Shown piece after piece: positions 1,138-22,434 of a stretch of DNA of 64,000 bases; positions within the stretch are counted from its first letter, which is position 1, and every line of letters starts with the position of its first letter. The position numbers and the translations under genes are program-made. The stretch lies in assembly GCF_057098645.1 (NCBI RefSeq), contig NZ_CM169472.1, one strand, 5' to 3'. Under the pieces are notes generated by a model that did not search any database, was not told the DNA's origin, and saw only the letters and a program-made list of their open reading frames with translations.

Positions 1138-1198
1138 TCAGATAGCCTCAAATTCCTTATTGGGTGCCAGAATTAACGCTGACACCCAATTTGACTTC

Positions 1199-1864: not shown

Positions 1865-1985
1865 ACGCTTTTCCTTGTGGATCTCAACTCGCCAGCACCT
1901 ATCTTACATGCCGGTCCGTATCAGAGATACTTTTTGAGTGGCTTTGCCGGTGATTAAAAATCAAGGAGGGTGTAACGACAAGTTG

Positions 1986-2115: not shown

Positions 2116-2412
2116 TCTACGCAATATCAATGAGTTACATAGCAGTGCATTGCGAAACTTTGCTGACGTTGAATGGTCGTCTTTGCAACCACTGGCAGAA
2201 AATGGATAGCCGTAGATTGCGTTGAGCACAGAAACAGCACAGGGTAATCGTCTACTTGGTCCTGTAAAGGAGGTTGTTGCCACACAAGCTAAAGCGCTTG
2301 ACCTGCCCCCAGTATTCGGTACAACTGTCAGTTAGTAATATCTGTTCTGTGAACCGCTCTCTGAATGTGATCCATTCATAATCAGCGCTACCTTTAGAGG
2401 TTGAATACCCAG

Positions 2413-2440
2413 CCCCTGGTAAACATAACGTTCCAGGGGG
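2413..2440 (-). terminator. Putative rho-independent terminator downstream of the DUF262/DUF1524 gene
   Basis: Inverted repeat cccctgg...ccagggg just 3' of the minus-strand ORF ending at 2463. Confidence 0.4.
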
Positions 2441-2462
2441 TACTTTGCGATGAAGGATATTT

Positions 2463-4952: not shown

Positions 4953-5708
4953 CTACATATCAGCCAACAACATCCCAGCCATGCCATCCAGCCGTTTCTT
5001 GACCTTTTCCCACCCAGGCATAACCTGCCCCATCAGGCGGTAAAACTCTTCACTGTGGTTGTGCTCAGCAACATGGCATAACTCATGTAGCAAAACATAA
5101 TCGATACATTCTGAGGATGCCTTAACCAGCCATGGATTCAGGGTCAGACAGCCTTTTGCTGAACAGTTGCCCCATTGCGTTTGCATCGCCCGCAGACGTA
5201 TCGGAGGACGCTCACTGACCCAAAGGGTCTGCGGAATCAGTAAATCAAGCCTGCGCTGAAAAACATCTCTGGCACGTTCCCGATACCATTCAGCCAGCAA
5301 GGCTTTAATCTTTTCTGCCGATTTGTGTCTGACAGTCACTTCCAGACGCCCACGCAACATTTTCACTCGTTGCGGCACAGTAGCGTCTTCTGTCACTTTC
5401 AACTGATATTGCTTACCGAGATAATAATGGCTTTCTCCGCTGACATACTGACGCGGAACAATGTGTGTCTGTTGCTCCCTGAAATCACGCAGTTGCTGGT
5501 ATATCCAGCGCCCACGTTTTTTCAGCGCAGACAATACCTCGTGCTCCGGTGTTTCAGGCGGTACAGAGGCCACAACCCGGCAGTCCGGATAAACCTTGAT
5601 GAGCACCCTGCCCTTTACGACCTGACGCGGAACACACTGTACGACGATGACCTCATCACCATAGACAATGCGTAACGCTTTCATTGATGGCGATTCTTTT
5701 TCACTCAT
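4953..5708 (-). CDS. DUF45 / M48-like zinc metallopeptidase (YgjP-like)
   Basis: 251-aa ORF with HELCHVAEHNH (HExxH) motif; start overlaps hsdR stop by 4 bp, implying co-transcription; this family commonly follows hsdR. Confidence 0.7.
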   Translation of the reverse strand: MSEKESPSMKALRIVYGDEVIVVQCVPRQVVKGRVLIKVYPDCRVVASVPPETPEHEVLSALKKRGRWIYQQLRDFREQQTHIVPRQYVSGESHYYLGKQYQLKVTEDATVPQRVKMLRGRLEVTVRHKSAEKIKALLAEWYRERARDVFQRRLDLLIPQTLWVSERPPIRLRAMQTQWGNCSAKGCLTLNPWLVKASSECIDYVLLHELCHVAEHNHSEEFYRLMGQVMPGWEKVKKRLDGMAGMLLADM

Positions 5709-8700
5709 GATTTCATCAAACCAACGCGCAGTATCTGGATGATGGTTTCCACAATACGGTTAACCTGATTCATTCCGGCACCAATTTCCCGGCAGGCCGT
5801 AAACAGCAGTGGTAGCAGACTTGTCTTAACGACTTTCTCAATGTCCTGGGGGTTCAGGGAGTTTTCTGCCACCGCTTTGACGATAATGTTGTCCACGTCA
5901 AAAGCCAGCTTCGTCCACTTATCCTGCACTTGAACGTCTTTTACCACAAAAACCTCAGGTAGCTCTTTTTTAAATACACCGTAATATGCCTGAGCATGCT
6001 TGTTTACCGCCAAAGCATCCGGGATATCACTGAGCTTACGGGCTTTAACCTGTTCTTCAAACTCACGGAATAAGAGGTACTGCTTAAGTGGATGGTCGAA
6101 CAGTTTTTCAGCCTCTTCGATTGCCATACGCAGGAGTCTGGAAAAGGCCTCCTGAGCATACGGATCATCACGCAGCTCCTGCTCAATCATCTTCGTCACA
6201 CGGGTTTTAATGATGTCGGTTTCATTGCGGGTTTTATTGTTATCCCACTCTTCGGGTTTTTCGCTCTTGCCCATTTTACCGACTTCATACACGCCATCCG
6301 GTTCACGAACCTCAACGCCGGTAACATGCTTATCCAGCAATTTTTTCACCTGCTCAGCGTAGTCGTCATAATTGACCTGCTCTCCACTTACCTGCATCGC
6401 CCACTGGCGAAGGCTGGACATCTGTTTTACGGTTTCTTTATAGAGATTTCGGTCTTGTTCCGTAAAGCTCTTGTCGGTGAAGAAGGTAGCGGACTGCAGT
6501 GCCACTTTCAGGCATCCGGCAAAGGCCGTTAACGCCTCGAAGAAATCATCACGGGTTTTCTGATGGATATCGACCATCTCTCCGTCACGTTCTTCCATTT
6601 TAGGCACCAGTACTGCACGTAACTGCTCAGTATCATTTTTGTTTTTAACACCGGCAAATATGGCCCACAACTGGTTATACAGATGCGGCAGACGTTTATA
6701 TTCAGAGCTCATGGCGCTGTACAGCCCGTCAATATCCTTGATGTCGTATCCTCCCTGGGTTCGGGAGGCGAGATCCTGATATTTGCCGATAGTCGTGTCC
6801 AGTTCAGCCAGAATGCCGCGATAATCAATCAGCAGGCCAAACTTTTTCAGTGGATGCAGACGGTTTACCCTTGCAATCGCCTGGATAAGGTTGTGGGACT
6901 TAAGCGGCTTGTCGATATACAGCACGGTATTCTTCGGTTCATCAAATCCGGTGAGCAGTTTATCAACGACGATCAGTAATTTGAGCTTATCATCAGTATC
7001 GAAACGACTGATGATATTGCGGGTATACACAGACTCATCCTGCATGCCGACGTTATCTTTCCACCATTTCGTCACTTCCGGCAGTTTGCTTTCATCCACC
7101 TCAGTATTCCCTTCCCGGGTATCCGGCGGGCTGATAACTACAGCTGACTCAAACAACCCGGCTTCATCAAGATACTTTTTATATTTGATGGCGGAAATCT
7201 TGCTGTCGCAGGCAAGTTGGCCTTTCAGCCCCTCATCAATATTCTTCGAGAAGTGTGTGGCGATATCGAGTGCGATCAGCCGGATGCGGTCATCTGCACT
7301 GTAGACCTCACCTTTACGGGCATATTTACGTTTAAGGTCGGCTTTTTGCGCTTCGCTTAACCCATCGGTAATACGGTCAAACCAGGCATCTATTGCCCGA
7401 TCGTTAACCTCAAGGTCGGGAATACGTTCTTCATACAGCAAAGGTGTAACGGCTTTATCTTCTACCGCTCGCTGCATGGTATAAGCGTGGACAATCGGCC
7501 CGAATTTATTGGTGGTCTTATCTTCTTTTAGCAATGGCGTACCGGTGAATGCCACAAAGGCGGCGTTCGGCAGTGCCAGTTTCATTCGCACATGGTTCTC
7601 ACCCCCCTGGCTGCGGTGTCCTTCATCAATCAGAACGATGATGTCGGGGCTGGTATTGACGCATTCAGGCAATTTTGTCGCTGAGTTAAATTTCTGGATA
7701 AGGGTAAAGATTATACGTTCTTTACCAGAGCCAATCTGCTGTGCCAGCTTCTGACCTGAGGTCGCCATCGCTTTGGCCTTATCATCCTTCCCTGCCAGTT
7801 CGCCACCAGAGACAAAAGTGCCGCTGAGCTGCCCTTCAAGGTCCACGCGGTCCGTCACCACCACAATACGACACTGCTTCAGGCTGTCATGAAGGATCAG
7901 CGCCTTGCTGAGGAATACCATGGTGTAAGATTTACCTGACCTCGTGGTATGCCAGATCACCCCACCTTCCCTGCCCCCGTCTGGTCTGCGGGTACTGATG
8001 CGTTCCAGCAGTCTTTTTATCCCGAACACCTGCTGATAGCGGGCAACAATTTTTCCGGTTTTTTTATCAAACAGGGTGAAGAAGCGGGTCATCTCCAGCA
8101 GACGTTCCGGTGAAAGCAGACTGATGAGCAGCTTATCCTGCCCGCTGACTGCCAGTTCCCCCCCATCGATTAACTGTTGATACCATTTGAGATCGACTGA
8201 AGGACGATGATCAAACAACGCATGAATTTGTTCAGTCGATAACTGATGGTTGCGCAGCGCATACATCTGCGGATCGGTAATATCTTCTTCGCGCCATGCC
8301 GCCCAGAATTTCATTGGCGTATGGCATGTACCGTAGCGCCCGTCATGACCGTTAATCGAAAGTAATAACTGGCTGTAGACAAACAGCTGCGGGATTTCAT
8401 CGTTGAACTGGTTGCGGATACTCTGGGATATCCCCTCGTCAATGGTTGGCCCTTTCTTGCCATGACCAGCCGGGCTTTTCGCTTCAATAACAGCCAGCGG
8501 GATACCATTAACAAAGCAGACAATATCCGGTCTGCGGGTTTCAACACCGCCTGACCGCAATACCGTAAATTCTTCAGTAAAATGGAACTGGTTATTTTCC
8601 GGATGTTCCCAGTCGATCAGCGCAATGGTGGGGTTGACCTTCTTGCCATCGACAAATTCGGTGACGGCGATACCGTAGAGCAGATGGTTATACATCCGTT

Positions 8701-8989
8701 CATTGGCTTTGAGCAGCCCTTCATTCAGCGCCGGAGAACAGACCTGTGATATCAGGTTATCCAGTGCTTTTTCCGATAACTGGCAGTTTTTGCCACCCGC
8801 CATAAAGGAACGCTTCGACAGCTCTTCACGCAGAACCGGACGCAGCACCACCTCATCCTGTTTATAGCCCCGGTAATCCATAATCTGTTTCGGAGATAAA
8901 AACGTCCAGCCGAGGCTGGTCAGTAACGTCAGTGCCGGGATTTTGGCGCTGTATTCTTCCTGGAATTTAGGTTGGTAGTGCTTATCCAC
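5705..8989 (-). CDS. hsdR: Type I restriction enzyme R (restriction/translocase) subunit
   Basis: 1094-aa ORF with helicase-type motifs (e.g. VLIDEGHRSQ DEAH-like box); operon context with hsdM/hsdS. Confidence 0.88.
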   Translation of the reverse strand: MDKHYQPKFQEEYSAKIPALTLLTSLGWTFLSPKQIMDYRGYKQDEVVLRPVLREELSKRSFMAGGKNCQLSEKALDNLISQVCSPALNEGLLKANERMYNHLLYGIAVTEFVDGKKVNPTIALIDWEHPENNQFHFTEEFTVLRSGGVETRRPDIVCFVNGIPLAVIEAKSPAGHGKKGPTIDEGISQSIRNQFNDEIPQLFVYSQLLLSINGHDGRYGTCHTPMKFWAAWREEDITDPQMYALRNHQLSTEQIHALFDHRPSVDLKWYQQLIDGGELAVSGQDKLLISLLSPERLLEMTRFFTLFDKKTGKIVARYQQVFGIKRLLERISTRRPDGGREGGVIWHTTRSGKSYTMVFLSKALILHDSLKQCRIVVVTDRVDLEGQLSGTFVSGGELAGKDDKAKAMATSGQKLAQQIGSGKERIIFTLIQKFNSATKLPECVNTSPDIIVLIDEGHRSQGGENHVRMKLALPNAAFVAFTGTPLLKEDKTTNKFGPIVHAYTMQRAVEDKAVTPLLYEERIPDLEVNDRAIDAWFDRITDGLSEAQKADLKRKYARKGEVYSADDRIRLIALDIATHFSKNIDEGLKGQLACDSKISAIKYKKYLDEAGLFESAVVISPPDTREGNTEVDESKLPEVTKWWKDNVGMQDESVYTRNIISRFDTDDKLKLLIVVDKLLTGFDEPKNTVLYIDKPLKSHNLIQAIARVNRLHPLKKFGLLIDYRGILAELDTTIGKYQDLASRTQGGYDIKDIDGLYSAMSSEYKRLPHLYNQLWAIFAGVKNKNDTEQLRAVLVPKMEERDGEMVDIHQKTRDDFFEALTAFAGCLKVALQSATFFTDKSFTEQDRNLYKETVKQMSSLRQWAMQVSGEQVNYDDYAEQVKKLLDKHVTGVEVREPDGVYEVGKMGKSEKPEEWDNNKTRNETDIIKTRVTKMIEQELRDDPYAQEAFSRLLRMAIEEAEKLFDHPLKQYLLFREFEEQVKARKLSDIPDALAVNKHAQAYYGVFKKELPEVFVVKDVQVQDKWTKLAFDVDNIIVKAVAENSLNPQDIEKVVKTSLLPLLFTACREIGAGMNQVNRIVETIIQILRVGLMKS

Positions 8990-9058
8990 CCGGTAATCCT
9001 TCTTGGCTAAGAGGTGAAACTGTATGTCCTTACGGACATACTCAAAATGAACGAAGAC

Positions 9059-10843
9059 TTATGATGAAAAGAACGGCGAGTCCCGATAAAGGCGATTGTA
9101 CTTGACCTGTTCTGTTTCGCCCTTGTTTACATTACCAAATTTCTCCTGATGCGTCGTACAGCAGGAACCACAGGATGCACAAATAAATCGTCCTTCTGAA
9201 CATTTTTCATGCAAATCCCTGGCGTCAATTATTTCGCTGCATTTGTAACCAATACAGTGATTAATGTAATGCCCGATACCAAACTGTTCGCACGAATGAC
9301 TGGCACATTTAAAGACGGTCAGGCGATACGCGGCCTGGAAAGGTTTTTTCACAAATCCTTTCGACTTTGTATCCCAGACGCTGACTTCCACACGAGCATA
9401 TTTCATATCTGGAACCATCAGCACCCCACAACTTCGGCAATGCAAGCGGGAATGTAATTCTCTGATACGATTGAAATACCCAGCCAGTTTAATTGGGAAA
9501 TCCCGCTTAGAAGGTTCGCCTGCAATCAGATAGGTCATGCCATAGTGGGCAAGCCAGTCATAAATAGTGAAGTCGATGTAATCCCGACTGAGGTCGGGTA
9601 GTACCTGCGGATCATGGCAGATTTTCGAACGACAAAGGAATTTTTTCTCTATCGTTCCGTCAGGTTGTTTTGCATTCCAGTGAAATGCCTCACAGGATAA
9701 TTTTAAATTCCGGGAACGAATTTTCAATGAGCTACACTGTGGGAACAATTTGAAAACAGAAGGATGGCTTACCGGGATTTTACCCGACAACACTCCCTGC
9801 CATATCTCATGCAGAATAATACTCAGAACGGACTGTTCATCGTTACGCCCAATCAGCGGTAACAATTTACTCAGAATAAAGTATTCAGGGTCAGAAGAAA
9901 TTTCAGTATTCGACTCAATATCATTAACAAAACTGAAATCTTTCCTGAACATCTTCTGTTTAATCAAATACTTATTGACAAAAGGACTAATCACGGAATG
10001 TTTATAAAATTGCTCTCTCGATGAGAATTTCTGCTGATAGGCATCACGGACAAATGGTTGTATATCCATTTTATTTTTCGTGAAACTACGTCGAACAAAA
10101 TTCTCTATATCATCATGCCGATGTTCAAGAATCCGCTCGCTGCTTATACAATCGTAAAATGCCAGGTAGAGAATAGCACTTATAGATATATGGCTGAGTA
10201 ATTCATTGATGATGTCCGATGTTGAAGCCCCCTGGCAATCCGTAGCCGCAGAACACCTTTTCACCCAAACAGCGAACTGATCAATGTTATTATCGATAAA
10301 TGACGAAGGCATGACTGCAGGAGATATTTGTTGTGCGGTCAAATCATCAAAATTCTTATCAGAGGCGAAAAGTGCAAACTGGTTATCGTAGTTACGTGAT
10401 TTTAAAAATAGCGGCAAGACTTTTGTAGCAGCTATATCACTGGTAACTAACCGAATTATAGCCCTTTCGCCAAAGGACTGAGTGAGAAAATTAATAACGC
10501 AGTCACGATAACGCCAACGAGCGAAATCAACGCCCTCCTCAATAATAGCCCGGAGATATTCAATAAGGAGCTCAGCCGTCTCCTCATCTGTTTTATCAAG
10601 AATGTGAACATTAAAAGCCGTAGGCTTACCATTTTTACCTGTACCTTCCCTGAACAGCACCGGTGCATTGTCTGCGGGTGTATAGTTCCGGCTTATCTCA
10701 TTCTTATGAAAAAACAGCTCATTACCATTCTCTGATAAGAGAAAGCCAAAGTTATTCTCCCGATCCGTTTTGCTGTTGTAGCCTCCGAACCAGAGAACAT
10801 TTCCCATGTACCACCGGGAACGATCCAGATTGTTCACTGCCAT
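9059..10843 (-). CDS. Hypothetical protein: N-terminal cold-shock-like (OB-fold) domain, large unknown middle region, C-terminal Cys-rich zinc-ribbon-like region
   Basis: ORF 9059..10921; start chosen at internal Met (MAVNNL...) to avoid a 56-bp overlap with the upstream gene; N-terminal NNFGFLLSENGNELFFHKNEI resembles the CspA-type GFGFI...VFVH motif; C-terminus has clustered CxxC / CxH / CxxC motifs. Confidence 0.55.
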   Translation of the reverse strand: MAVNNLDRSRWYMGNVLWFGGYNSKTDRENNFGFLLSENGNELFFHKNEISRNYTPADNAPVLFREGTGKNGKPTAFNVHILDKTDEETAELLIEYLRAIIEEGVDFARWRYRDCVINFLTQSFGERAIIRLVTSDIAATKVLPLFLKSRNYDNQFALFASDKNFDDLTAQQISPAVMPSSFIDNNIDQFAVWVKRCSAATDCQGASTSDIINELLSHISISAILYLAFYDCISSERILEHRHDDIENFVRRSFTKNKMDIQPFVRDAYQQKFSSREQFYKHSVISPFVNKYLIKQKMFRKDFSFVNDIESNTEISSDPEYFILSKLLPLIGRNDEQSVLSIILHEIWQGVLSGKIPVSHPSVFKLFPQCSSLKIRSRNLKLSCEAFHWNAKQPDGTIEKKFLCRSKICHDPQVLPDLSRDYIDFTIYDWLAHYGMTYLIAGEPSKRDFPIKLAGYFNRIRELHSRLHCRSCGVLMVPDMKYARVEVSVWDTKSKGFVKKPFQAAYRLTVFKCASHSCEQFGIGHYINHCIGYKCSEIIDARDLHEKCSEGRFICASCGSCCTTHQEKFGNVNKGETEQVKYNRLYRDSPFFSS

Positions 10844-10865
10844 GAGCAAGCCCCCTTCCGCTTTG

Positions 10866-11549
10866 TCAGTGCAGGCAGCACTTTTTAAATTTTTTACCAC
10901 TGCCACACTGACACGGGTCATTACGACCGGGCAGTTTTTCTGCCCCCTTCACGGGAACAGGCCGGGATGATGCCTCTGACATTCTCACCGACAACCAGTG
11001 CTGGTAAAGCGCCAGTGCCGCAGGCTGAATGAGAGTAATACTCTGTTCAAATTGAACAGGTGACATTTTCTCAACCACTGGGAAGTTCTTTTCAATACCA
11101 TGAAGGGCTATCGCCTCCAGCGAGGGACGTAAGGCCTCTGGCAAGGCTGACCAGTCATCCAGAGACCGGCCTTTCATATACCCGAAACACCACTCTTCGA
11201 CGATGGTATATGTCTTCCCCTTCACCTCACGTCCATTGAAAATCGGTTCAAACTGTTCAGGGGCCTCATACAGGCAGCCAGCGATATCGTTCATATGCTG
11301 AAAACACAGCCCCACAAAACGCGTCATCTCTTTTTCAGTGGTCCAGCGAGGGTGGTAATCACCTCGCCCCCAGATAGCACTGAGCCAGGTATTAGGGGAA
11401 ATCGTATTCGGGCCAGAGACAATCGCCGTCAGAAAGCCATCCAGCTCAGAGAAACAGAGCACAGAGTCATCATTGCCGTATTTCATCAACACCTCTTCCA
11501 GCCAGTCGATTTCCCGGTCAATCAGCGGCCCGCTTTTCGTCAGTTTCAT
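10866..11549 (-). CDS. YecA-like UPF0149 / SEC-C motif protein (island-borne paralog of core yecA)
   Basis: 227-aa ORF alignable over its whole length with YecA (1199..1864), roughly half identical by eye; same C-terminal [20 protein letters not shown] motif; start abuts the hsdS stop. Confidence 0.8.
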   Translation of the reverse strand: MKLTKSGPLIDREIDWLEEVLMKYGNDDSVLCFSELDGFLTAIVSGPNTISPNTWLSAIWGRGDYHPRWTTEKEMTRFVGLCFQHMNDIAGCLYEAPEQFEPIFNGREVKGKTYTIVEEWCFGYMKGRSLDDWSALPEALRPSLEAIALHGIEKNFPVVEKMSPVQFEQSITLIQPAALALYQHWLSVRMSEASSRPVPVKGAEKLPGRNDPCQCGSGKKFKKCCLH

Positions 11550-12189
11550 TCGGCAACCGCCTCATCGACCTTAACACGACGTTTGCCAGTCAGTAGCTGT
11601 TGCATCAGGGCTTTTTTCTCGTCTTTCAGGCAGGCGAGTTTTTTCTCCAGCGTGGAGATTTCAGCGTCGGCAGCGGAAAGGACGGCGGCGATTTTTTGTT
11701 GTTCTTTGATATCTAATGGCAACCTAAAGTCTTTCTCTTTAAGTTCTCGCATATGTCTGCTGTAACCTAAATTCGGAATATCTGTATTTGAAAGAAGATA
11801 GTATCCAAGTTTTGGTTCAAGTATTTTGCTAGTTTTTATTACTTGCGTTCCATCAGCACCGGGACAAAACACAAACTCAATCCATTTGACGCATCTTGTA
11901 TGATCGCCAAAAACAATCACAGGCACGTCCGAATAAACCTCTAAATTATTACAGTACCCAGCAATTCGACTTTGCCCTTGATCGATTATAGGGATGGAAC
12001 CTGACTGTAAATAATCGGAAGATTTGACTTGCGCCGATTTTTTATTTGCAACAATGAAAGCATTATCAAACGTTAAATATACCCACTCCCCATTAAACCT
12101 CCCCCCATTCTCATCCAGCAAGCGTTTTTGTCCGGTAAGCAATTGCTGCATCAGGGCTTTTTTCTGTTGCTGGCTGTTGGTGAGAAGCG

Positions 12190-13245
12190 GCTTTGTTGAA
12201 TAAATCAGATTTCGGGTAAGTCTCCCCCGTAGCGGGTTGTGTTTTCAGGCAATACGCACGCTTTCAGGCATACCTGCTTTCGTCATTTTGTTCAGCGCTC
12301 GTACCAGGGCCATAGCCTCCGCAACCTGACCATCGTAGTCACGCAGCGTCAGTGAACCCCCGAACAGCTGTTTTACCCGGTACATCGCCGTTTCCGCTAT
12401 CGAGCGACGGTTGTAATCTGTTGTCCATTTCCACCGCGCATTACTCCCGGTCATTCGCTGATTAGCCACTGCACGGTTACGGTCTGCATATTCACCGGGC
12501 CAGTAGCCCGCACCTTTTCGGGGAGGGATAAGCGCGCTGATTTTCTTACGCCGCAGTTCATCGTGACATAGCCGGGTATCGTAAGCGCCATCGGCGGCGG
12601 CTGACCTGATTTTCCGGTGGGTTTGCCGGATTAACCCGGGGAAGGCCTCTGAGTCCGTAACGTTGTTCAGCGACAGGTCTGCACAGATGATTTCATGTGT
12701 TTTACTGTCAACGGCGAGATGCAGCTTACGCCAGATACGGCGGCGTTCCTGGCCATGCTTTTTGACTTTCCACTCGCCTTCACCGAAGACCTTCAGCCCG
12801 GTGGAATCAATCACCAGATGTGCGATTTCACCCCGGGTGGGCGTTTTGAAACTGACATTAACCGACTTTGCCCGCCTGCTGACACAGCTGTAATCCGGGC
12901 AGCGTAGCGGAACGTTCATCAGAGAAAAAATGGAATCAATAAAGCCCTGCGCAGCGCGCAGGGTCAGCCTGAATACGCGTTTAATGACCAGCACAGTCGT
13001 GATGGCAAGGTCAGAATAGCGCTGAGGTCTGCCTCGTGAAGAAGGTGTTGCTGACTCATACCAGGCCTGAATAGCTTCATCATCCAGCCAGAAAGTTATG
13101 GAGCCACGGTTGATGAGGGCTTTATTGTAGGTGGGCCAGTTGGTGATTTTGAACTTTTGCTTTGCCACGGAACGGTCTGCGTTGTCGGGAAGATGCGTGA
13201 TCTGATCCTTCAACTCAGCAAAAGTTCGATTTATTCAACAAAGCC
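12190..13245 (-). mobile_element. IS5-family (IS903-group) insertion sequence, copy 1
   Basis: ~1057 bp; terminal inverted repeats GGCTTTGTTGAATAAATC at both ends; flanked by 9-bp target-site duplication GTGAGAAGC (12181..12189 and 13246..13254). Confidence 0.85.
12245..13213 (-). CDS. IS903-group (IS5 family) transposase
   Basis: 322-aa ORF; DDE transposase with ...LIDSTGLKVFGEGEWKVKKHG...WRKLHLAVD... region; identical protein encoded at 28742..29710. Confidence 0.88.
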   Translation of the reverse strand: MKDQITHLPDNADRSVAKQKFKITNWPTYNKALINRGSITFWLDDEAIQAWYESATPSSRGRPQRYSDLAITTVLVIKRVFRLTLRAAQGFIDSIFSLMNVPLRCPDYSCVSRRAKSVNVSFKTPTRGEIAHLVIDSTGLKVFGEGEWKVKKHGQERRRIWRKLHLAVDSKTHEIICADLSLNNVTDSEAFPGLIRQTHRKIRSAAADGAYDTRLCHDELRRKKISALIPPRKGAGYWPGEYADRNRAVANQRMTGSNARWKWTTDYNRRSIAETAMYRVKQLFGGSLTLRDYDGQVAEAMALVRALNKMTKAGMPESVRIA

Positions 13246-13815
13246 GTGAGAAGCTTTTCCGTCACCGAAATCGCCTCATCCCAGGTTGACAGAATTTTAA
13301 CGATTCTCTTTTGTTCAGACAGTGGGGGGATATTAAATGGCCACTTAAACCAACTATCTAACTTAAAAATCATTTTCTCTATGTGCACACCAATGCTAGA
13401 GTGGAAGCAGGTTTGCTGGAAATATAGAGACTCCGATAGAAATTCCATATAAGGAAGATAAAAACCGGACTTCCCTGTAAGCACACAATATTCATTCGAT
13501 ACAATTGAGCCAGAAAGTTCTTTAGGTACAAGACCGCAAGCACCGTGCACAATTTGTCGTTTTGATATGAGAAAGTCGCCTTCTTTAATATAGAATTGAC
13601 TTTTTACGGAGATATCTTTTCCTTTAAGATGCTCACGTCTTATTACGCCACCTCTGGAGCGCTTTACTGTAACTAAGTCATACTCTTGATTATCTTGTAT
13701 ATATGCCTTTCTTGCCTCTATATTTAAGCACTTTTCTAATGATAACTTTTGCCATCCTGTAGGTAGCATTCCAAGGATCGGTTTTCCAGCTTTAACGCTC
13801 ACTGGGTAAAGCGAA

Positions 13816-15339
13816 TCACGAGCCATAACCCAACTCCTTCAAATACCCTGCCATCTCAACTTCCAGCTTCGCCAGTTCCACCTTCAGTTGCTCACGCTCT
13901 GCTCGCACCGCCACCAGGTCAATCTCATCCTCTTCTTCAAAGGTATCGACATAGCGCGGAATATTGAGGTTGTAATCGTTGTCCTGAATTTCCTTCAGGC
14001 TGGCAAGATAGGCGTATTTCTCGACGTTATCGCCATCACGGTAGGTCTTGACGATTTTCTTAATGTTTTCTTCGCTAAGCTGGTTCTGGTTTTTACCTGC
14101 CTTGAATTCACGGCTGGCATCGATAAACAGCACCTTGTCATCAACTTTCTACTTTTTGAAAATCAGAATCGCAGCCGGAATCCCCGTACCGTAGAACAGT
14201 TTTTCCGGCAGACCAATTACCGCATCCAGCAAATTTTCGTCGATCAGTTTCTGGCGAATTTTACCTTCGCTGGAGCCACGGAAAAGCACACCGTGTGGCA
14301 CAACTACGCCCATACGGCCAGTTCCCGGTTTCAGGGTTTCGATCATATGCGAGATAAAAGCGTAATCTCCTTTAGTCTTCGGCGGTACACCGCGACGAAA
14401 ACGGCCAAACTTATCGTTCTCGGCCTCGTCATGGCCCCACTTATCGAGGCTGAACGGTGGGTTAGCGGTCACGATATCAAACAGCATCAGGTCGCCATTT
14501 TTATCGAGCAGCTTCGGGTTACGAATGGTATCGCCCCACTCGATTTTATGGTTGTCTTCCCCGTGCAGGAACATATTCATTTTCGCCAGCGACCACGTAG
14601 AACCGATCGCTTCCTGACCGAACAAGGCATAGTTACGACTATCATGCCCGGAGACAATTTTACGCCCACACTTCATCAATAATGAACCGGAACCACAGGC
14701 TGGATCGCAGATGGTATCACCCGGTTGCGGATCGAGCAGTTCTGCAATCAGGTCCGAAACTTCCGGCGGGGTATAGAACTCCCCGGCTTTCTGCCCACCG
14801 CTGGCGGCAAAGTTTTTGATCAGGTATTCGTAAGCATTGCCGATAACGTCCAGCGTACCGACACGACTCGGCTTCAGGTTGAGATCTTCACCGGCGAAGT
14901 CTTCCAGTAGCTGACGCAGTATGGTGTTTTTCTGTTTTTCTTCGCCAAGACGATCGGTGTTAAACGAAATATCCTGGAACACGCTTTTCCCGGCATCTTT
15001 CAGTTTGGTTCCGTTGGCTTCTTCGATTGCATGCAGAGCCTGATCGATACGCTCACCGTTACCCAGCTCATGGCGGCGTTCGTACAGCGCATAAAAGCTG
15101 GCACTTTTTGGCAGTACAAAACGCTCGTTGGCCATCATCGCTTCAATCAGTTCCGGCGCATCGCCATACTGTTCTTTGTATTCGTCATAGTGATCCTGCC
15201 AGACATCTGAAATGTACTTGAGGAACAGCATGGTAAGGATAAAGTCTTTATAGGTATCAGCACTGATGGTGCCACGGAACGTATCACACGCGGCCCACAG
15301 GGCTTTGTTGATCGTGTCCTGACTGATTTTGTCGTTCAT
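13816..15339 (-). pseudogene. hsdM: Type I R-M methyltransferase subunit hsdM with in-frame amber stop
   Basis: ORFs 14149..15339 (396 aa, N6-adenine MTase motifs incl. ...IVTANPPFS...) and 13816..14133 (105 aa) are in the same frame, separated by a TAG at 14149..14151. Confidence 0.75.
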
Positions 15340-15642
15340 GAATCATCCTGGTCTGAAGAAAAAGCTAGCGATGCAGGGCTTTGCATCTTAAAAATTGCGG
15401 TAAATGATACCGTAAGATGCCTCCCCTGACACGCCAATATCGCAGCATTCAGGTTTGCATCATCCCCGTAATATCGACATGAGACAGACTGACACAACCT
15501 GGCTCGTCACTCGCTAAAAACCAATTATCTTAGTAAGATAGCATCCATATTAGCCATGGTGTAAAACTGCCGTTGGGGTAATGATGATCCATATATCACC
15601 CATTCTGGTGTGTGAAGCTGACATCATCCATAATCGGCAACG

Positions 15643-16878
15643 TTGATGCCCTTTGATAGTAATGATGACCGTCAATGTGATTCCCCTGCTGACTGGAGGT
15701 CTCCGGATAGAATGAGTATTGCCAACTGCGCTATCGGCCCACTTTATGATGAGCAAATAAAAAAAACACTTATGTATGCTGACCATAAATTCAAGCGGCT
15801 AATGAATACACGAATGTCGTTACTCGAACATTTATCACCCCACTATGACTTATCTTCCATGTTCAGCTATGAGTTGGAGGGAAGAGTTTTTCGGATTAAA
15901 TTGATCAAGCCTGAGATTAAATTATCTCGCCAGCAGTTGATCTTCTCCTCACTCTTTTTAGAGCAAGATTTTCTAAAAGAATATAAAAAACACATCTCAA
16001 ATACTCTACAAAAAACAATCAAACAGTGCATTAAAAAATACAAACAAAAAATCAAAATCGAGCCTTCTATTTTAGATTACATATCAGCATCACCCCGCAA
16101 TACGTCGAGTTATGTATTACATGAGATAGTTTCTCAATGTGAACATTGCGATGAAATTCGCAATATTAAAAATGATATATTGCTTGATGAACTAACGTTG
16201 AATGGCCGGATCACTAACATTTCAAAATACATTAAAAATAGTCAAGATAAAATCGTCGAACATATAGAGTTCTGCACTCATAAACTTGTCAATATAAGTC
16301 GTAAGAATCGTCACATTTTCAACAGCACCACAATACCTGGTAGAAAACCTAACATCACTGGTGTTTTACTTTGCCTTTCGGAATTGATAAGCAACCTGCA
16401 TATTTACCCAACTGAAATTAATAATATAAGCAATGCCATAATATTAAGCATTGTATACTCTGTACTTCAACATCTTCAATCTGGAAGAGAAACAGAAAAA
16501 ACCAAAACCTCTCCAGCACTGAATTTCATCCCCACCATCATCGCACCTCATGTTTTCTACCTGGCGAAACGCGAAAAATCCTCTCAATATAAATACATTG
16601 AAAAAGAATATCTTCTCGGCCAGTTACTTATATTTTTGATGTATAAAACAGTTTACTACTCGATTCATAGCATCAGGGTAAGCCGTAAGCATTTCTATAA
16701 CGATATAAAACCAAAATTAATGACACTAAAAAAAGAAAGCTTATTAAGCACCAATTTCATGAAAAATCGAAGAGAGATTAGTGGTGAAGTCTTTGGTGAT
16801 GTTGGTAGTATTGAGGCTGATTTTCGAGAAATCAGCACATTGATTCATCGGCGAAAGGCTCTGTTTATTTCCTTTTAA
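15643..16878 (+). CDS. Hypothetical protein, AT-rich orphan ORF
   Basis: 411-aa ORF in a very AT-rich block; Lys/Ile/Asn-rich; no recognisable motif; true start may be an internal Met. Confidence 0.4.
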   Translation: MMPFDSNDDRQCDSPADWRSPDRMSIANCAIGPLYDEQIKKTLMYADHKFKRLMNTRMSLLEHLSPHYDLSSMFSYELEGRVFRIKLIKPEIKLSRQQLIFSSLFLEQDFLKEYKKHISNTLQKTIKQCIKKYKQKIKIEPSILDYISASPRNTSSYVLHEIVSQCEHCDEIRNIKNDILLDELTLNGRITNISKYIKNSQDKIVEHIEFCTHKLVNISRKNRHIFNSTTIPGRKPNITGVLLCLSELISNLHIYPTEINNISNAIILSIVYSVLQHLQSGRETEKTKTSPALNFIPTIIAPHVFYLAKREKSSQYKYIEKEYLLGQLLIFLMYKTVYYSIHSIRVSRKHFYNDIKPKLMTLKKESLLSTNFMKNRREISGEVFGDVGSIEADFREISTLIHRRKALFISF

Positions 16879-17279
16879 TCTTTAGAGAACACTATATCAT
16901 CGTGAAGCAGAGCTAATTTCAGCCTTGCATAGATCATTATCAATGCCATAGACAGTGTTAATCATATGACATCGTTCCGGTATTGATACTGATTATCAGG
17001 CCTTGGTTTTATGTAATTTAAACACCACCATCTCTGAAACCCCATAACGCTCACAATTTAACCATAAAAACTAACCGGTTTATACCCGCTAACAAAATCA
17101 ATAACATATTGAATTTAAATAACTATAACCATTCCAACTACAGATGACTGGCTTTTATTTATGGTATATGTCCCGGCAGAATCAAGCTTGCGCCCTCTAC
17201 CACTCACGATTTAGGATTTCCTCGCTAACACAGCATGTTTCATTATAAATCAATGTATTAATTTAAACGAGGATAAACC

Positions 17280-18126
17280 ATGTTCGAGAAAATGAAAAAC
17301 AATGTAACCCGTGTACCGGGGAATTTAACCATACTTAATCAATACCAAAAAGACATTGATCACCTGTCTAAATTATTTTCTGAACAGCTATTACTGGATC
17401 TAATGACGACTACCAACCCTAATCAAACATTGCAAATGAAACCTTCTGTAGATATTCTTCATGTACTATCTCCATCAGCATCCACTGCTAACCATATCAA
17501 TTTTTTTCAGCACGTCCCAGTGATCGAACTATGGTTAAAAAAGGAGTGCACTGCCTTTAATTCACTTGCTATTTATTTCTATGCACAGCAATCCCGTAAA
17601 AATGTCATTCCGAAAAAAAATCTGTAGACAACTGGACGTATTTATTAATACTGAACTTGCATCTGCGGTTAATGGCAATAGTAATTCTAAACCCCTTTTT
17701 CATTTTCTAAATAACTACCTTTATCATCCTAAAATGATTGCATTGATCATTTTATCTATGCTGCCTTATGAAGTCATTCGTAACGATGAATCACTGAGTG
17801 AGTTTAAAACACCATTAACCACACCCGATGAGTTTATTATCAAAGCATTTTGCGTTAAAGGTACGCAAAACACCACGGGACATAAAAAAGATATCGAACA
17901 ATTGCTTCGAAAAACATATATCTACATTGCATTACTTTTGAACCCTGAGTGGGTACCATCATCCAAGGATTTGATTTCCTTTTTATCAGGAGAGTCCACC
18001 GAGATAAGTGGTTCAATGAATTTCCAGTCAACGTCCAGTGGTCTGGGTGTTCAAACTAACAATATCACTCTTCTTAAGAATGAGGTTTACTTCGAAAAAA
18101 TAGCGAACAAGATCATGAAACTGTAG
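17280..18126 (+). pseudogene. Hypothetical AT-rich gene split by +1/-1 frame change at an A8 tract
   Basis: ORFs 17280..17627 and 17566..18126 overlap in different frames across the homopolymer AAAAAAAA at 17613..17620; removing one A fuses them into a ~282-aa ORF. Confidence 0.45.
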
Positions 18127-18269
18127 TTTCTTAATATAATGGCGACATGGAATTGTGTTGCCATTATATCCGAATCAGAATTTTTCACCTGATGAACTGT
18201 GAAAACTGAGACTGGCAGACAGTAATCTCGCACCGTATTTTTTCTGTGTTATTTTACAGGAGAAATACG

Positions 18270-19400
18270 ATGCCCATTCTGGATCTGCGTTTCAGCAACA
18301 AATCACTTCACCAACTTCCCCATCCCCTCACGGGCTGTCAGGAATACCGTGATATTCACTGCCAAAACCTGCGTGCTCTGGTGTATCCCAATCGGATCAC
18401 GCTGGCCTTTCGTGCCACTATAAACAATCAGCGTATATATGAACCCCTGGGTCAGTTCCCTCAGCTCTGCGTTGAGGATGCCCGTCAGCATGTGATGAAA
18501 CTGCTTGCTGATAAAAATCGTCTTGCGGTTCAGTCCCGTCGATTCACTGTGGAACAGGCCATCAATGACCTGTGGCTACCGGATTTGCAGTTGTATAAAA
18601 AGAGTCCTCAGTCAGAGTTGTCAAAACTCAACCTCTACGTTCGCCCGTTCTGGGGCAAGCGGCAACTTCGCGACATCACGGCAGGAGAACTAGAACAATA
18701 TGCTGCTGGCTTACGGGAAAAATTACGTCCGTCAACAGTAAACCGTATCCTCGCAATATTGTCCAAAATATGCTCTCTGGCAGTACGTGCTGGATGGATC
18801 ACGCATTCCCCGATGTCACATGTCCGCTATCTGAAAGAAAATAACATTCGCTATCGCACACTATCAGCGACAGAAATCCCGCGCTTTATTGACGCGGCAA
18901 CAGCGCTGCAAACACCGGCAGCTGATTCTATATTGCTTGCTCTTTATACGGGGATGCGTATTGGTGAGGTATGTACCCTGAAATGGGAGTACTGGCACCT
19001 GGATATGCATCAACTCATACTGCCTGATACAAAGTCCGGACACCCTTTCACCTGCCCACTTGCACCTCCAGCCATTGCAGTTGTCCAGTGCCAGCAGGAC
19101 CTGATGCTCAGCAAAACTTACATTTTTCCGCGACTAACCGACAATGCCCGCCCTCTGGCATATCCGCGTGCAACCTTTGCCCGTATTTGCCGGGATGCCG
19201 ACATTGATAACCTGCGGATGCATGACCTGCGCCGTACCTTTGCCACCCGGGTACTACAGGCGACCGGGGATATTGCAATCGCTTCCCATCTGCTAAATCA
19301 CCATTCACTCACGGCGACCCGTCGCTACGCTTTTCACAATGCAGCGACATCACACGCAGTGGTTTCTCAGGTCATTGAAAGTTATGACACGAAAAAATGA
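18270..19400 (+). CDS. Tyrosine recombinase / phage-type integrase
   Basis: 376 aa from the ATG at 18270, which is preceded by AGGAG; C-terminal catalytic region ...HDLRRTFATRVLQ...HLLNHHSLTATRRYAF (R..H..R..Y). Confidence 0.85.
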   Translation: MPILDLRFSNKSLHQLPHPLTGCQEYRDIHCQNLRALVYPNRITLAFRATINNQRIYEPLGQFPQLCVEDARQHVMKLLADKNRLAVQSRRFTVEQAINDLWLPDLQLYKKSPQSELSKLNLYVRPFWGKRQLRDITAGELEQYAAGLREKLRPSTVNRILAILSKICSLAVRAGWITHSPMSHVRYLKENNIRYRTLSATEIPRFIDAATALQTPAADSILLALYTGMRIGEVCTLKWEYWHLDMHQLILPDTKSGHPFTCPLAPPAIAVVQCQQDLMLSKTYIFPRLTDNARPLAYPRATFARICRDADIDNLRMHDLRRTFATRVLQATGDIAIASHLLNHHSLTATRRYAFHNAATSHAVVSQVIESYDTKK

Positions 19401-19608: not shown

Positions 19609-19786
19609 GAACACGGAAAATAACGCTAATAATGCACTGAACATTCTTCCCGAATCAGCAAGCACAGCTGTAGACAACGATGAAAAATATCTGTCCTTTG
19701 CATTAGTTCTCGCTATCACGATTATGGGCAACTGAACCGCCCCGGGAATCCTGGAGACTAAACTTCCTGAGAAAGAGGTAAACAGG

Positions 19787-20113
19787 ATGACTAAAAATAC
19801 TCGTTTTTCCCCTGAAGTCCGTCAACGGGCAGTCCGTATGGTTCTGGAAAGTCAGGGCGAATATGACTCACAATGGGCGACAATTTGTTCCATTGCTCCA
19901 AAGATTGGCTGTACGCCGGAGACTCTGCGTGTCTGGGTTCGCCAGCATGAGCGGGATACCGGGGGCGGTGATGGAGGGCTCACCACCGCTGAACGTCAGC
20001 GTCTGAAAGAGCTGGAGCGTGAAAATCGTGAACTGCGCCGCAGTAACGATATCCTTCGCCAGGCTTCCGCTTATTTTGCGAAGGCGGAGTTCGACCGCCT
20101 CTGGAAAAAATGA
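19787..20113 (+). CDS. IS3-family transposase OrfA (HTH)
   Basis: 108-aa [22 protein letters not shown]..., typical IS3-family OrfA with leucine-zipper-like C-terminus. Confidence 0.85.
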
Positions 20114-21000
20114 TGCCACTGCTGGATAAGCTGCGTGAGCAGTACGGGGTCGGACCGCTATGCAGCGAACTGCATATTGCCCCGTCAACGTATTACCACT
20201 GTCAGCAACAGCGACATCATCCGGATAAACGCAGTGCCCGTGCGCAGCGCGATGACTGGCTGAAGAAAGAGATACAGCGCGTATACGATGAAAATCACAA
20301 GGTATACGGTGTGCGTAAAGTCTGGCGTCAGTTGTTACGGGAAGGTATCAGAGTGGCCAGATGCACTGTGGCACGTCTCATGGCGGTTATGGGACTTGCC
20401 GGTGTTCTCCGGGGTAAAAAGGTCCGTACGACCATCAGCCGGAAAGCCGTTGCCGCAGGCGACCGCGTAAACCGTCAGTTCGTGGCAGAACGACCTGACC
20501 AGCTGTGGGTGGCTGATTTTACTTACGTCAGCACATGGCAGGGCTTCGTCTATGTGGCGTTCATCATTGATGTGTTTGCCGGATACATTGTGGGGTGGCG
20601 GGTCTCATCGTCCATGGAGACGACATTCGTGCTGGATGCACTGGAGCAGGCGTTATGGGCCCGTCGACCGTCCGGCACGGTCCATCACAGTGATAAAGGT
20701 TCTCAGTATGTATCGCTGGCCTACACACAGCGGCTTAAGGAAGCCGGATTACTGGCATCAACAGGAAGTACAGGCGACTCGTATGACAACGCGATGGCGG
20801 AGAGCATCAATGGTCTTTACAAAGCGGAGGTAATACACCGTAAGAGCTGGAAAAACCGTGCAGAAGTGGAACTGGCCACACTCACGTGGGTGGACTGGTA
20901 TAACAATCGACGATTGCTGGAAAGGCTGGGCCATACTCCTCCGGCAGAAGCAGAAAAAGCTTATTATGCTTCCATCGGAAACGATGATCTGGCAGCCTGA
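20110..21000 (+). CDS. IS3-family transposase OrfB (DDE integrase-like catalytic domain)
   Basis: 296-aa ORF with DDE motif region (...WVADFTYV...HHSDKGSQY...[10 protein letters not shown]...). Confidence 0.85.
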
Positions 21001-21662
21001 GTTCACAGATAAAACACTCTCCAGGAAACCCGGGGCGGTTCAAACTTAGTAAAGCTCATCGGCACAGATGGCTTCATACTTTATACCTACACCCTGCAGG
21101 ACACGGCTACTGCTCGTGCTGTTTTTAATGAATTAGCCAGGCGTCTCAAAAATTTCAATCGTCAGGAGGAGGTCTACACCACCGATTCCCTCACCTTTCG
21201 AATGAAATACATTTACGGTGTTACCCTGTTCGAACATGATAGTAAATCTATCCTTAACCTTTTTGATAAGAAGGGTTATCCAGTATTGAGTGAATCAGGA
21301 GAACCCGGTTCTCTTGATGATATGTATCTTGACATTCAAGCCCGATTACATGGCGGCTACGCCTCAAAAAAGTTTCTTCATTTACATGAACATTGTCTGT
21401 TATCTGCACACGTTACCCCGTCTGTGGAAAAGACGCAACGTGGTATCCTGATTAAAGCAGGCAGGAAACTCGTTTCCTTTATCTATGCAGATAATGAATC
21501 TCGCAAAAATGATATTTTCAAAGCTGTAGTAGACGTCATTAAATCCTGATTCATTATGCCGGGTGCGTATTCCGCTCTATTCGATCACGGATTGGCATCG
21601 AAGTCCGATCAGCGATTCGCATCCATTCGATCAACCGGGAACTTAACTTTTTCTACCGCTTT

Positions 21663-22418
21663 TTAACGCGTTTTTTCGCTGCTTTCCACTACCGGGGGAT
21701 TTTTCCTCAGTGACTCTCCCTGAAGGACCACTCGGTGTGAGTTATGTACCAGTCTGTCCAGGATGGCATCTGCTGTTGTTGGGTTCTCCATCAGACCATG
21801 CCATTTATCTACCGGGAACTGGCTTACCACTATCGTGCTGCTTTGTCCGTAACGATCCTCTATGAGCTCCAGAAGGTCATTACACTGGGCGTTACTTAAC
21901 TGTTCCAGCCCCAGATCGTCCAGGATTAGAACCTGTATTTTTTGCAACTGTTTCAGATATTTCAGCCAGCTGCCATCAACACGTCCCTGAGCCAGTTGTT
22001 CCAGTAATCGCCCGGTTCTACAGTACCGGACGCTGTGTTTCTGTCGACATGCCTGTTCGCCCAGCGCATTGGCTATCCAGCTCTTGCCACATCCTGTCGG
22101 ACCGGTTATCAGCAGGTTTTTCCTGTGGGTTATGTAGTGGCCGTTCAGCAGTTCTCTCATCTGTTCAGCCCGCAGACCTCTTGAGGCCGGATAGCGCAGC
22201 CCTTCCGGTGTTGCCTGGTATTTCAGGCCGGCATTTTTTCTCAACCGTGCCACACGGCTGTTTTCCCTGCTCAGAAGCTCGTCATCAACCAGCAGCGTCA
22301 GCCTTTCCTCGAACGACAGTTCGTCGTAGGTCTGAGGCGTTTCCCGCTGCCGTATCAGGCTCCCGGCCATCGCCGGGAGTTTCAGTTGGGTCAGTTTGTT
22401 TAACAGGTTATCACTCAT
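21663..22418 (-). CDS. istB: IS21-family helper ATPase IstB
   Basis: Walker A GPTGCGKS and Walker B-like ILDDLG motifs; start set at MSDNLLNKL within the longer ORF 21663..22661. Confidence 0.8.
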   Translation of the reverse strand: MSDNLLNKLTQLKLPAMAGSLIRQRETPQTYDELSFEERLTLLVDDELLSRENSRVARLRKNAGLKYQATPEGLRYPASRGLRAEQMRELLNGHYITHRKNLLITGPTGCGKSWIANALGEQACRQKHSVRYCRTGRLLEQLAQGRVDGSWLKYLKQLQKIQVLILDDLGLEQLSNAQCNDLLELIEDRYGQSSTIVVSQFPVDKWHGLMENPTTADAILDRLVHNSHRVVLQGESLRKNPPVVESSEKTR

Positions 22419-22434
22419 ACTGTTGTTCCTTCTG

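Follow-up and report, generated by a model that had tools for sequence, protein, structure and literature searches.

An amber codon in hsdM and an IS903B insertion in hsdS mark a probably non-functional type I restriction-modification operon in Escherichia coli O145:H28

Related systems and organization of the locus

Type I restriction-modification (R-M) enzymes are built from two HsdR, two HsdM and one HsdS subunit, and HsdR cannot recognize its target without the M2S core (PMC3874165). Disrupted type I hsd genes have been described as common, and restriction alleviation has been described for types IA, IB and IC (PMC3874165). The operon considered here belongs to the E. coli O145:H28 lineage and is housed in an integrative defense island of ~28.6 kb that adjoins a tRNA-Leu gene (leuZ). 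It was analysed within a 64-kb stretch of DNA, referred to as the window. The hsd genes follow the order hsdM, hsdS, a yecA-like gene, a gene for a 620-aa protein, hsdR and an M48 peptidase gene, and all lie on the minus strand.

The nearest described counterparts are the published O145:H28 genomes RM13514, RM9872, 12E115 and FWSEC0002. Their island is at least 99.97% identical to that of the window and contains the same hsdM TAG; HsdR is identical, and HsdS is identical at 403 of 404 residues. These genomes lack the hsdM 5' end (window positions 15132-18662 are replaced by the side of an IS3-family element) and have an intact hsdS, whereas the window retains a full-length hsdM, carries IS903B in hsdS and harbors extra island copies of IS903B, IS21-family and IS2 elements. 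PapRG-06-5 and G1/2 share the gene order and the leuZ island, with HsdR differing at 3-7 residues. Both have CAG at codon 397 of an hsdM annotated as intact, and an hsdS free of any IS. The HsdS of PapRG-06-5 matches the reconstructed HsdS of the window at 401 of 404 residues, and the two systems thus probably share specificity.

Similarity to the EcoR124 enzymes is more distant. The M-S-R order and a 404-aa HsdS are shared with EcoR124I and other type IC systems and with the Vibrio vulnificus-type M2S complex (PDB 7VRU). HsdM matches PDB 7VRU (E = 6e-95) and, over its full length, the EcoR124II M protein (E = 1.2e-68), while the match to EcoR124II HsdS is weak (E = 9e-9) and that to EcoR124I HsdR (E = 1e-31) lies mainly in the motor domain, with residues 296-516 as the best stretch. 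Because overall similarity to EcoR124I and type IC falls far below the within-family level, assignment to type IC was considered and not made. EcoprrI, a type IC system with an embedded prrC, also contains extra genes inside its hsd operon (PMC3874165), but these encode an anticodon nuclease, whereas the window carries genes for YecA-like and 620-aa cold-shock-domain proteins between hsdS and hsdR. In EcoDXXI hsdS::Tn5, a transposable element likewise interrupts hsdS and leaves an N-terminal half-gene; in the window, however, HsdM had been lost beforehand and the insertion severs the helix close to its midpoint, so that new activity is not expected.

Against this background, the operon is very probably a non-functional (r- m-) type I R-M system in which the hsdM amber was the founding lesion and the other genes have since eroded at random.

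The hsdM amber codon and its distribution

The hsdM pseudogene (13816..15339, minus strand) encodes a type I N6-adenine methyltransferase subunit with Pfam HsdM_N and N6_Mtase matches. Its DNA is 98.3-99.5% identical to that of intact annotated hsdM genes, and its translation contains the DPACGSG and NPPF motifs for AdoMet binding and catalysis that characterize gamma-class N6-adenine methyltransferases. The full coding potential is 507 aa, and the product is cut to 396 aa by an amber TAG at codon 397 (14149..14151, minus strand), where orthologs have CAG (Gln). The stop arises from a C→T change (coding strand, window position 14151), which is the sole mismatch to intact orthologs across the surrounding 61 bases. 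The original prediction had located this in-frame TAG, and the alignment it proposed bears it out: all three intact E. coli orthologs fetched (G1/2, ECCHD184 and PapRG-06-5) have CAG at this codon. Two details require amendment. The stop removes Q397-S507, that is, 111 residues rather than ~105; the latter figure is the length of a downstream ORF that starts with GTG at 14133, 16 nt past the stop and in the same frame. In addition, the peptide around the stop, first given with KLDD, reads ...AILIFKK*KVDDKVLFIDAS. On the Pfam N6_Mtase profile, which has 311 positions, the stop maps to ~232-238; HsdM therefore loses the last part of its catalytic domain along with its C-terminal region. Against TIGR00497, with its cutoff of 242.75 bits, the truncated 396-aa product reaches 200.9 bits.

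The TAG is genuine and found throughout the lineage. Among 5426 complete RefSeq E. coli genomes, exactly 20 contain the identical 61-mer around it; all of these that have a serotype label are O145, and 312 further genomes of the same set carry a one-base variant. A Q397 version of the exact HsdM allele was absent from a collection of 15 billion proteins; the nearest intact alleles show 99.5% DNA identity. In each of the six complete O145 genomes that were sampled, PGAP marks hsdM as pseudogenic on account of an 'internal stop'. As an ordinary pseudogene locus with an hsdM internal stop, the operon is already known from PGAP/RefSeq annotation of O145:H28 genomes. A sequencing or assembly error, with hsdM intact in this strain, had been named as a possible refutation, and TAG does differ from CAG by a single base. 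The same base, however, was read in the 20 complete genomes by several laboratories on several platforms and in 15 of 15 sibling contigs (NCBI and Logan assemblies from independent runs), and the exact truncated product is recorded on 70 contigs (NCBI, ENA and Logan). Error as the source of the TAG is rejected on these independent assemblies and is practically out of the question.

In the proposed course of events, conversion of Gln397 into an amber codon would have removed the end of the methyltransferase fold together with the C-terminal region. No M2S core would then form, and neither methylation nor restriction would be expected. The amber allele would subsequently have spread across the O145:H28 clone. 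We infer that activity has been lost in this particular strain as well. SMRT methylomes of RM13514 and RM13516 contain only GATC and CTGCAG/DTGCAG motifs and no bipartite type I motif (PMC3893438), in strains that both carry damage beyond the TAG (one lacks the hsdM 5' end, and the other has a 9-kb deletion).

The IS903B insertion in hsdS

The hsdS gene spans 13826→11546 on the minus strand and is broken by IS903B. Its 5' part (13246..13826, minus strand) encodes target-recognition domain 1 and the first half of the central conserved helix; its 3' part (11546..12188, minus strand) encodes the second half of that helix, target-recognition domain 2 and the C-terminal conserved region. Both assignments draw on Pfam Methylase_S matches, the reconstruction and a domain map. 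Compared with other alleles, HsdS displays the variable/conserved/variable/conserved identity profile of a specificity subunit in a gene that is physically split. Against one allele, its central region retains 84-88% identity although the target-recognition domains share only ~20%, and this central region aligns with the central helix in 1YF2, a solved structure of an HsdS protein.

The inserted element (12189..13245, minus strand) is a 1057-bp IS903B of the IS5 family, 100% identical over its full length to PGAP-annotated IS903B copies. It has perfect 18-bp terminal inverted repeats (GGCTTTGTTGAATAAATC) and is flanked by a perfect 9-bp target-site duplication, GTGAGAAGC, at 12180..12188 on the left and 13246..13254 on the right. 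Its transposase ORF (13213→12245) has the orientation of hsdS, scores 357 bits against NCBIfam transpos_IS5_2 (cutoff 140) and matches Pfam DDE_Tnp_1. Length, inverted repeats, a single DDE transposase and the 9-bp duplication all place the element in the IS903 group of the IS5 family. The duplication spans hsdS codons 191-194, inside the central conserved region (~residues 176-225). Removing the element in silico restores an ORF of 1215 bp, and the 404-aa HsdS that it encodes is the same, residue for residue, as the intact protein of a sibling strain. This confirms the predicted splitting of the gene in its central conserved region. An N-terminal ORF of 203 aa (13826→13215) retains the full target-recognition domain 1 and ends in nine IS-encoded residues. 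The window contains two IS903B copies that are 100% identical to each other; an inversion or a composite transposon formed by these two inverted copies was considered and rejected, as each has its own matching 9-bp duplication.

hsdR and the embedded genes

Between hsdS and hsdR lie two intact genes. The YecA-like gene (10866..11549, minus strand) encodes a UPF0149 domain and a SEC-C motif by Pfam, corresponds to the PADLOC candidate PDC-S12 (E = 8.5e-98) and occupies the same place in orthologous loci. The 620-aa protein gene (9059..10921, minus strand) shows a weak cold-shock-domain match and a Cys-rich C-terminus, and PGAP names its ortholog 'cold shock domain-containing protein'. By analogy with EcoprrI, which guards PrrC, these two genes might form an autonomous defense or abortive-infection module once guarded by the type I complex, although we consider this unlikely.

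As predicted, hsdR (5705..8989, minus strand) is intact: its 1094-aa ORF runs uninterrupted from 8989 to 5705, its length equals that of annotated orthologs, and RM9872, an O145 strain, encodes the identical protein. HsdR combines an N-terminal nuclease domain with an SF2/DEAD-box translocase, as expected of an HsdR subunit, on the basis of Pfam matches to HSDR_N (E = 1.8e-46), SWI2_SNF2 (E = 9.3e-74), ResIII and a T1R_D3-like domain, together with a DEGH motif in the translation. PADLOC REase_I (1365.7 bits) and TIGR00348 hsdR (455 bits, cutoff 284) recognize it as well, and its exact sequence is found on at least 1000 contigs. The hsdR stop codon is overlapped by the final gene of the cluster, an M48/YgjP-like metallopeptidase gene (4953..5708, minus strand; Pfam YgjP-like, E = 3.1e-58), which adjoins hsdR in all orthologous loci examined.

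Order of the lesions and damage in relatives

The two lesions of this strain arose in a defined order. Each of the 15 sibling contigs and each of the six complete O145 genomes combines the TAG with an empty hsdS insertion site, and two siblings (L011 and L012) show no difference from the window across 7552 bp when the IS is left out of the comparison. Since every relative examined has the TAG and an uninterrupted hsdS, the amber preceded the IS insertion, which is recent and strain-specific. The identity of the two IS903B copies in the window fits this order. The hsdS::IS903B junction was found in none of the 5426 complete E. coli genomes searched, and the exact IS-fused HsdS fragments (203 aa and 201 aa) were absent from the protein collection searched. 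Short-read assemblies would break at the IS, and absence of the junction from them weighs little.

Relatives carry different damage on the same background. Among the siblings, L007 has an R468* nonsense change in hsdR, L009 has a 1-bp deletion causing a -1 frameshift in hsdR, L010 and L014 share a +1 frameshift in the 620-aa gene, and in L008 a segment covering the 3' end of hsdS and the 5' end of the yecA-like gene is replaced. In six of six complete O145 genomes, the hsdM 5' end is lost beside an IS3-family element. RM13514 has IS600 inserted in hsdR, RM13516 and RM12761 share a 9,009-bp deletion that removes the 5' part of hsdR, and C325 has a different large deletion that also removes the 5' part of hsdR. 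Sister strains have lost hsdR instead of hsdS, and the second hit on the TAG background therefore looks random. After the amber, the remaining genes of the locus would have been eroding at random, with a very recent IS903B transposition splitting the central coiled-coil helix of HsdS in this strain and other events in sister strains striking hsdR, the hsdM 5' end or the 620-aa gene, or removing the whole core.

Little time appears to have passed. Nine of ten siblings differ by 0-4 SNPs across the 7.5-kb locus, and hsdR is intact most simply because so little time has elapsed. Point changes among siblings comprise five nonsynonymous, one nonsense and two synonymous substitutions, too few for a statistical test of neutrality; we infer that the secondary events were neutral. 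Both hsdS and hsdR are intact in most O145 genomes, an observation explained equally well by residual selection or by very low divergence.

Alternative explanations

The original prediction read the retention of hsdR after loss of the modification and specificity subunits as the order expected of a self-protective shutdown that gives up M and S but specifically keeps R, so that lethal self-restriction is avoided. Part of this stands: hsdM was indeed lost first, the two lesions are independent, and hsdR is intact in the strain. The protective order itself does not, as sister strains on the same background lost hsdR instead of hsdS, or everything at once. Moreover, HsdR needs the M2S core, so that no order is safer than another after the TAG, and inactivating hsdR first (r- m+) would be at least as safe. 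With hsdM dead, the state of hsdS and hsdR is without consequence for self-restriction, and the variety of secondary lesions indicates that hsdR was retained by chance. An ordered shutdown is accordingly highly unlikely. If any step was hazardous, it would have been the loss of M, which in this family may have been tolerated through restriction alleviation, by analogy with the described types, rather than through the order of gene loss.

Two further readings would leave some activity in the locus before or after the insertion. Read-through or suppression of the amber, or reassembly of the 396-aa fragment with a 105-aa fragment re-initiated at GTG 14133, could have left O145 with a low-level methylase, and the system in this strain would have been killed only by IS903B. 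A CAG→TAG change is the kind that a Gln-inserting supE-type tRNA corrects, restoring the exact wild-type protein; the in-frame GTG-started ORF lies just 16 nt past the stop, and hsdS and hsdR are intact in many O145 genomes. Most complete O145 genomes, however, have lost the first 208 bp of hsdM and the region upstream, which a lineage dependent on the methylase would not tolerate, and hsdR and hsdS have been damaged repeatedly on the TAG background. The RM13514 methylome lacks a type I motif, and the 64-kb window encodes only tRNAs Leu-TAA, Cys-GCA and Gly-GCC, with no suppressor among them. Residual methylase activity is very improbable on this evidence. Alternatively, the insertion could have switched specificity, with the truncated N-terminal HsdS dimerizing to recognize a new palindromic site. 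Tn5 in EcoDXXI hsdS provides a precedent (PMC3874165), and the 203-aa ORF retains a complete target-recognition domain 1. Such a switch depends on a functional HsdM, and HsdM was lost before the insertion; moreover, the cut near the middle of the helix leaves about half of the dimerization helix plus the IS-encoded residues. Homodimeric half-S proteins have been reported only for type IC (PMC3874165), and this system is distant from EcoR124. A half-HsdS switch on the EcoDXXI::Tn5 model was rejected on these grounds and is extremely improbable. A less testable proposal, related to the idea of a guarded module, is that loss of restriction could have been selected in the O145:H28 founder because it opened the clone to Stx phages and plasmids.

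Concluding remarks

The O145:H28 lineage can be recognized cleanly by its hsdM amber, and the strain or sub-lineage by the hsdS::IS903B junction. Should the embedded genes prove to be a guarded module, O145:H28 would represent a natural experiment, the whole lineage having lost the guard, HsdM, but kept the module. A single genome is poor ground for reading 'orders' of gene loss; the independent secondary lesions on one founding mutation offer a small example of how a multi-gene system erodes after its first failure. Inventories of active defense or methylation systems in O145:H28 strains should leave this locus out.

Gene organization and genomic setting of the hsd cluster

The type I restriction-modification (R-M) genes belong to a compact cluster of six genes on the minus strand (window 4953-15339). 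hsdM (15339 to 13816) overlaps by 11 nt with hsdS (13826 to 11546), which is followed by a YecA-like gene of 227 aa carrying a UPF0149 domain and a SEC-C motif (11549 to 10866), a gene for a 620-aa protein that weakly matches a cold-shock domain (10921 to 9059), hsdR (8989 to 5705), and an M48/YgjP-like metallopeptidase gene (5708 to 4953) that overlaps the hsdR stop codon. Pfam, NCBIfam, and PADLOC identify the three hsd products as type I R-M subunits, and the system would work like classical type I R-M in design. E. coli G1/2 and PapRG-06-5 have these genes annotated in the same order, each with an intact hsdM (507 aa) and hsdS (404 aa). The metallopeptidase gene adjoins hsdR in every orthologous locus seen, and this conserved position suggests that it is part of the hsd operon. 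The YecA-like product matches the PADLOC candidate PDC-S12 (E = 8.5e-98). Beside its weak domain match, the 620-aa protein has a Cys-rich C-terminus and found no family match in PADLOC or NCBIfam. In strain ECCHD184, the YecA-like gene is embedded alone, without the 620-aa gene.

The island that houses the cluster has yecA on one side and the tRNA genes leuZ-cysT-glyW on the other. Direct repeats of 133 bp with 2 mismatches mark the edges (1983-2115 and 30576-30708), the second copy overlapping the 3' part of tRNA-Leu (leuZ, 30653-30739), and these repeats look like the att ends of an integrative island of ~28.6 kb. Its cargo includes a GmrSD/DUF262 gene (2463-4334; PADLOC HEC-06), a tyrosine integrase (18246-19400), and a PolB-like gene (25940-28135). 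A stretch of ~18 kb in the island contains five insertion sequences (12189-13245, 19733-21043, ~21564-24202, ~24584-25914, and 28710-29766): two IS903B, one IS3-family (IS629-like), one IS21-family (IstA/IstB), and one IS2 element. Because six complete O145 genomes do not have the IS903B, IS21-family, and IS2 copies at this locus, the recent insertion load is unusually high in this strain.

An amber codon truncates HsdM in the O145:H28 lineage

Translation of hsdM yields a single in-frame stop, the predicted TAG at 14149-14151 (codon 397). Alignment with the G1/2 ortholog, which differs by 25 substitutions and 0 indels, places CAG (Gln) at this codon, and across the 61 bases around the stop the sole difference from G1/2, ECCHD184, and PapRG-06-5 is position 14151. 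On the 311-position Pfam N6_Mtase profile, the stop maps to about 232-238. The truncated protein retains two motifs, DPACGSG (AdoMet) and NPPF (catalytic), and lacks the end of the methyltransferase fold as well as the C-terminal region. The original prediction was right about a C-terminal loss and wrong about its size: 111 residues go, and the ~105 aa that it gave correspond to a downstream GTG-started ORF. The local peptide it quoted as KLDD reads KVDD.

Sequencing error was considered as a source of the TAG and is excluded, given its recurrence in 15/15 sibling contigs retrieved from close relatives (L004-L018) and in 20 complete genomes, as well as the presence of the exact 396-aa product on 70 contigs (NCBI, ENA, Logan) and in 93 indexed blocks of the assembly collection. 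Among 5426 complete RefSeq E. coli genomes, the exact 61-mer centred on the TAG occurs in those 20, and every serotype-labelled one is O145 (O145:H28 or O145:NM); 312 further genomes carry the 61-mer with a single mismatch. O145:H28 genomes share 99.9% identity with the window across the flanking core, fliC included. Based on this distribution and identity, the source strain of the window very probably belongs to the O145:H28 lineage, of which the amber is a marker.

IS903B interrupts hsdS

The element at 12189-13245 (1057 bp) has perfect 18-bp terminal inverted repeats and one IS5-family DDE transposase ORF in the same direction as hsdS; it is identical (100%, full length) to IS903B copies named by PGAP. 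The 9-bp direct repeat GTGAGAAGC flanks it at 12180-12188 and 13246-13254, giving the junction k-mers GCTGTTGGTGAGAAGCGGCTTTGTTGAATAAATC and GATTTATTCAACAAAGCCGTGAGAAGCTTTTCC. In-silico removal of the element and one repeat copy restores a 1215-bp ORF, which encodes a 404-aa HsdS identical to the intact protein of a sibling strain.

Comparison with alleles bearing different recognition domains divides HsdS into variable (1 to about 175 and about 226-350) and conserved (about 176-225 and about 351-404) regions. Identity in the central conserved region stays at 84-88% even when the domains on either side share only ~20%, and in alignment with 1YF2, a solved HsdS structure, this region corresponds to the long central helix. 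The duplicated target, codons 191-194, falls within this region. Excision, element identity, and domain map thus bear out the prediction that an IS903-group element with a perfect 9-bp duplication splits hsdS in its central conserved region.

The second IS903B copy of the window (28710-29766) is 100% identical to the hsdS copy and inverted relative to it, each with its own 9-bp duplication. Within the same conserved region, codon 220 (window 12102) encodes Gly in the window and in siblings L010-L012 and Val in other O145 genomes, a difference that marks a sub-lineage.

Relative age of the lesions and further decay

The TAG is shared by relatives, but their hsdS is uninterrupted. No IS lies in hsdS of the sibling contigs, and every contig found with the exact HsdS allele of the window also has the TAG. 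Both the TAG and an intact hsdS occur in 6/6 complete O145 genomes sampled (12E115, RM13514, RM9872, RM9154, FWSEC0002, and 99-3311), whose hsdM PGAP calls a pseudogene with 'internal stop'. The hsdS::IS903B junction was absent from all 5426 complete E. coli genomes searched. These patterns indicate that the amber came first, before the sampled O145 genomes diverged, and that the IS903B insertion is recent, in this strain or its sub-lineage. Once the IS is removed, comparison of the window with ten siblings (L004-L013) over 7552 bp gives 0-4 changes for nine of them, and L011 and L012 are identical to it. The strains represented by GCA_015672185.1 and ERR769171 are TAG-only siblings that agree with the window at all bases except for the IS.

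Second lesions were tallied on the TAG background or in strains with a nearly identical core genome (99.9%). Window 15132-18662, which takes in 208 bp at the 5' end of hsdM along with genes upstream, is missing in 6/6 complete O145 genomes, with an IS3-family element adjoining. IS600 interrupts hsdR in RM13514, and an IS3-family element sits in the M48 gene of RM9872. Smaller lesions in siblings include R468* (L007) and a 1-bp deletion (L009) in hsdR, a 1-bp insertion in the 620-aa gene (L010 and L014), and a replaced segment spanning the hsdS 3' end and the yecA-like 5' end (L008). RM13516 and RM12761 have cleanly lost 9,009 bp (window 6736-15744), and with them hsdM, hsdS, the two embedded genes, and two-thirds of hsdR (junction at RM13516 contig L019 25426-25428, window 6735/15745); among 5426 complete genomes, this deletion is restricted to these two Belgian 2007 outbreak genomes. 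A different large deletion occurs in C325 (L026, 37310-39228), and both deletion types remove most of the cluster, leaving the hsdR 3' remnant alone. Point differences among siblings (5 nonsynonymous, 1 nonsense, and 2 synonymous), too few for a statistical test, look unconstrained.

Retention of hsdR and inferred loss of function

The system is in decay, as originally proposed, through the TAG in hsdM and IS903B in hsdS. The predicted integrity of hsdR (1094 aa) also held, its product being identical to one on at least 1000 other contigs. The accompanying argument, that losing the M and S subunits while keeping hsdR follows the order expected for safe inactivation, is unsupported: sister strains lost R instead, and hsdR is damaged at least as often as hsdS in relatives. 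Loss of M before S is borne out by relatives with the TAG and an intact hsdS. The order of loss would nonetheless not be protective, because once HsdM is gone, whatever happens to S and R makes no difference to self-restriction; the sole risky step would be losing modification. Type I systems survive this step through restriction alleviation, which is ClpXP-dependent in types IA and IB and follows another route in IC, and by analogy such alleviation may cover the family of the present system. That hsdR is still intact would simply reflect the very little time that has passed.

A type I enzyme comprises 2R+2M+S, and its methylase is a 2M+S trimer (PMC3874165). Since the truncated HsdM is taken as unable to form the 2M+S core, we infer an r- m- state. 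A methylase could in principle be restored by amber suppression, by read-through, or by the split HsdM coming together again; such rescue is unlikely, given that the hsdM 5' end is further lost in most O145 genomes and that hsdR and hsdS have been damaged repeatedly. A specificity switch through half-HsdS proteins, for which Tn5 insertion in EcoDXXI hsdS is the precedent (PMC3874165), was rejected: it requires that HsdM be functional and the dimerisation helix complete, and both are missing. Published SMRT methylomes agree with the r- m- reading, in two O145:H28 strains that are both damaged beyond the TAG: RM13514 showed GATC, CTGCAG, and DTGCAG only, RM13516 GATC only, and neither a bipartite type I motif (PMC3893438). 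PapRG-06-5, with an intact hsdM and an HsdS identical at 401/404 positions, is a natural positive control for the system.

Relation to known systems

By M-S-R gene order and HsdM similarity, the system is nearest to the 7VRU and EcoR124 group, although the similarity is too distant for the type IC label. EcoprrI likewise embeds a gene, prrC, between hsdS and hsdR (PMC3874165), as the YecA-like and 620-aa genes are embedded here, and this pair is the only thread at the locus that is even mildly novel. Disrupted hsd genes are common (PMC3874165), and public O145 genomes already have the internal stop in their annotation; the decay of the locus is therefore nothing unusual and already known.
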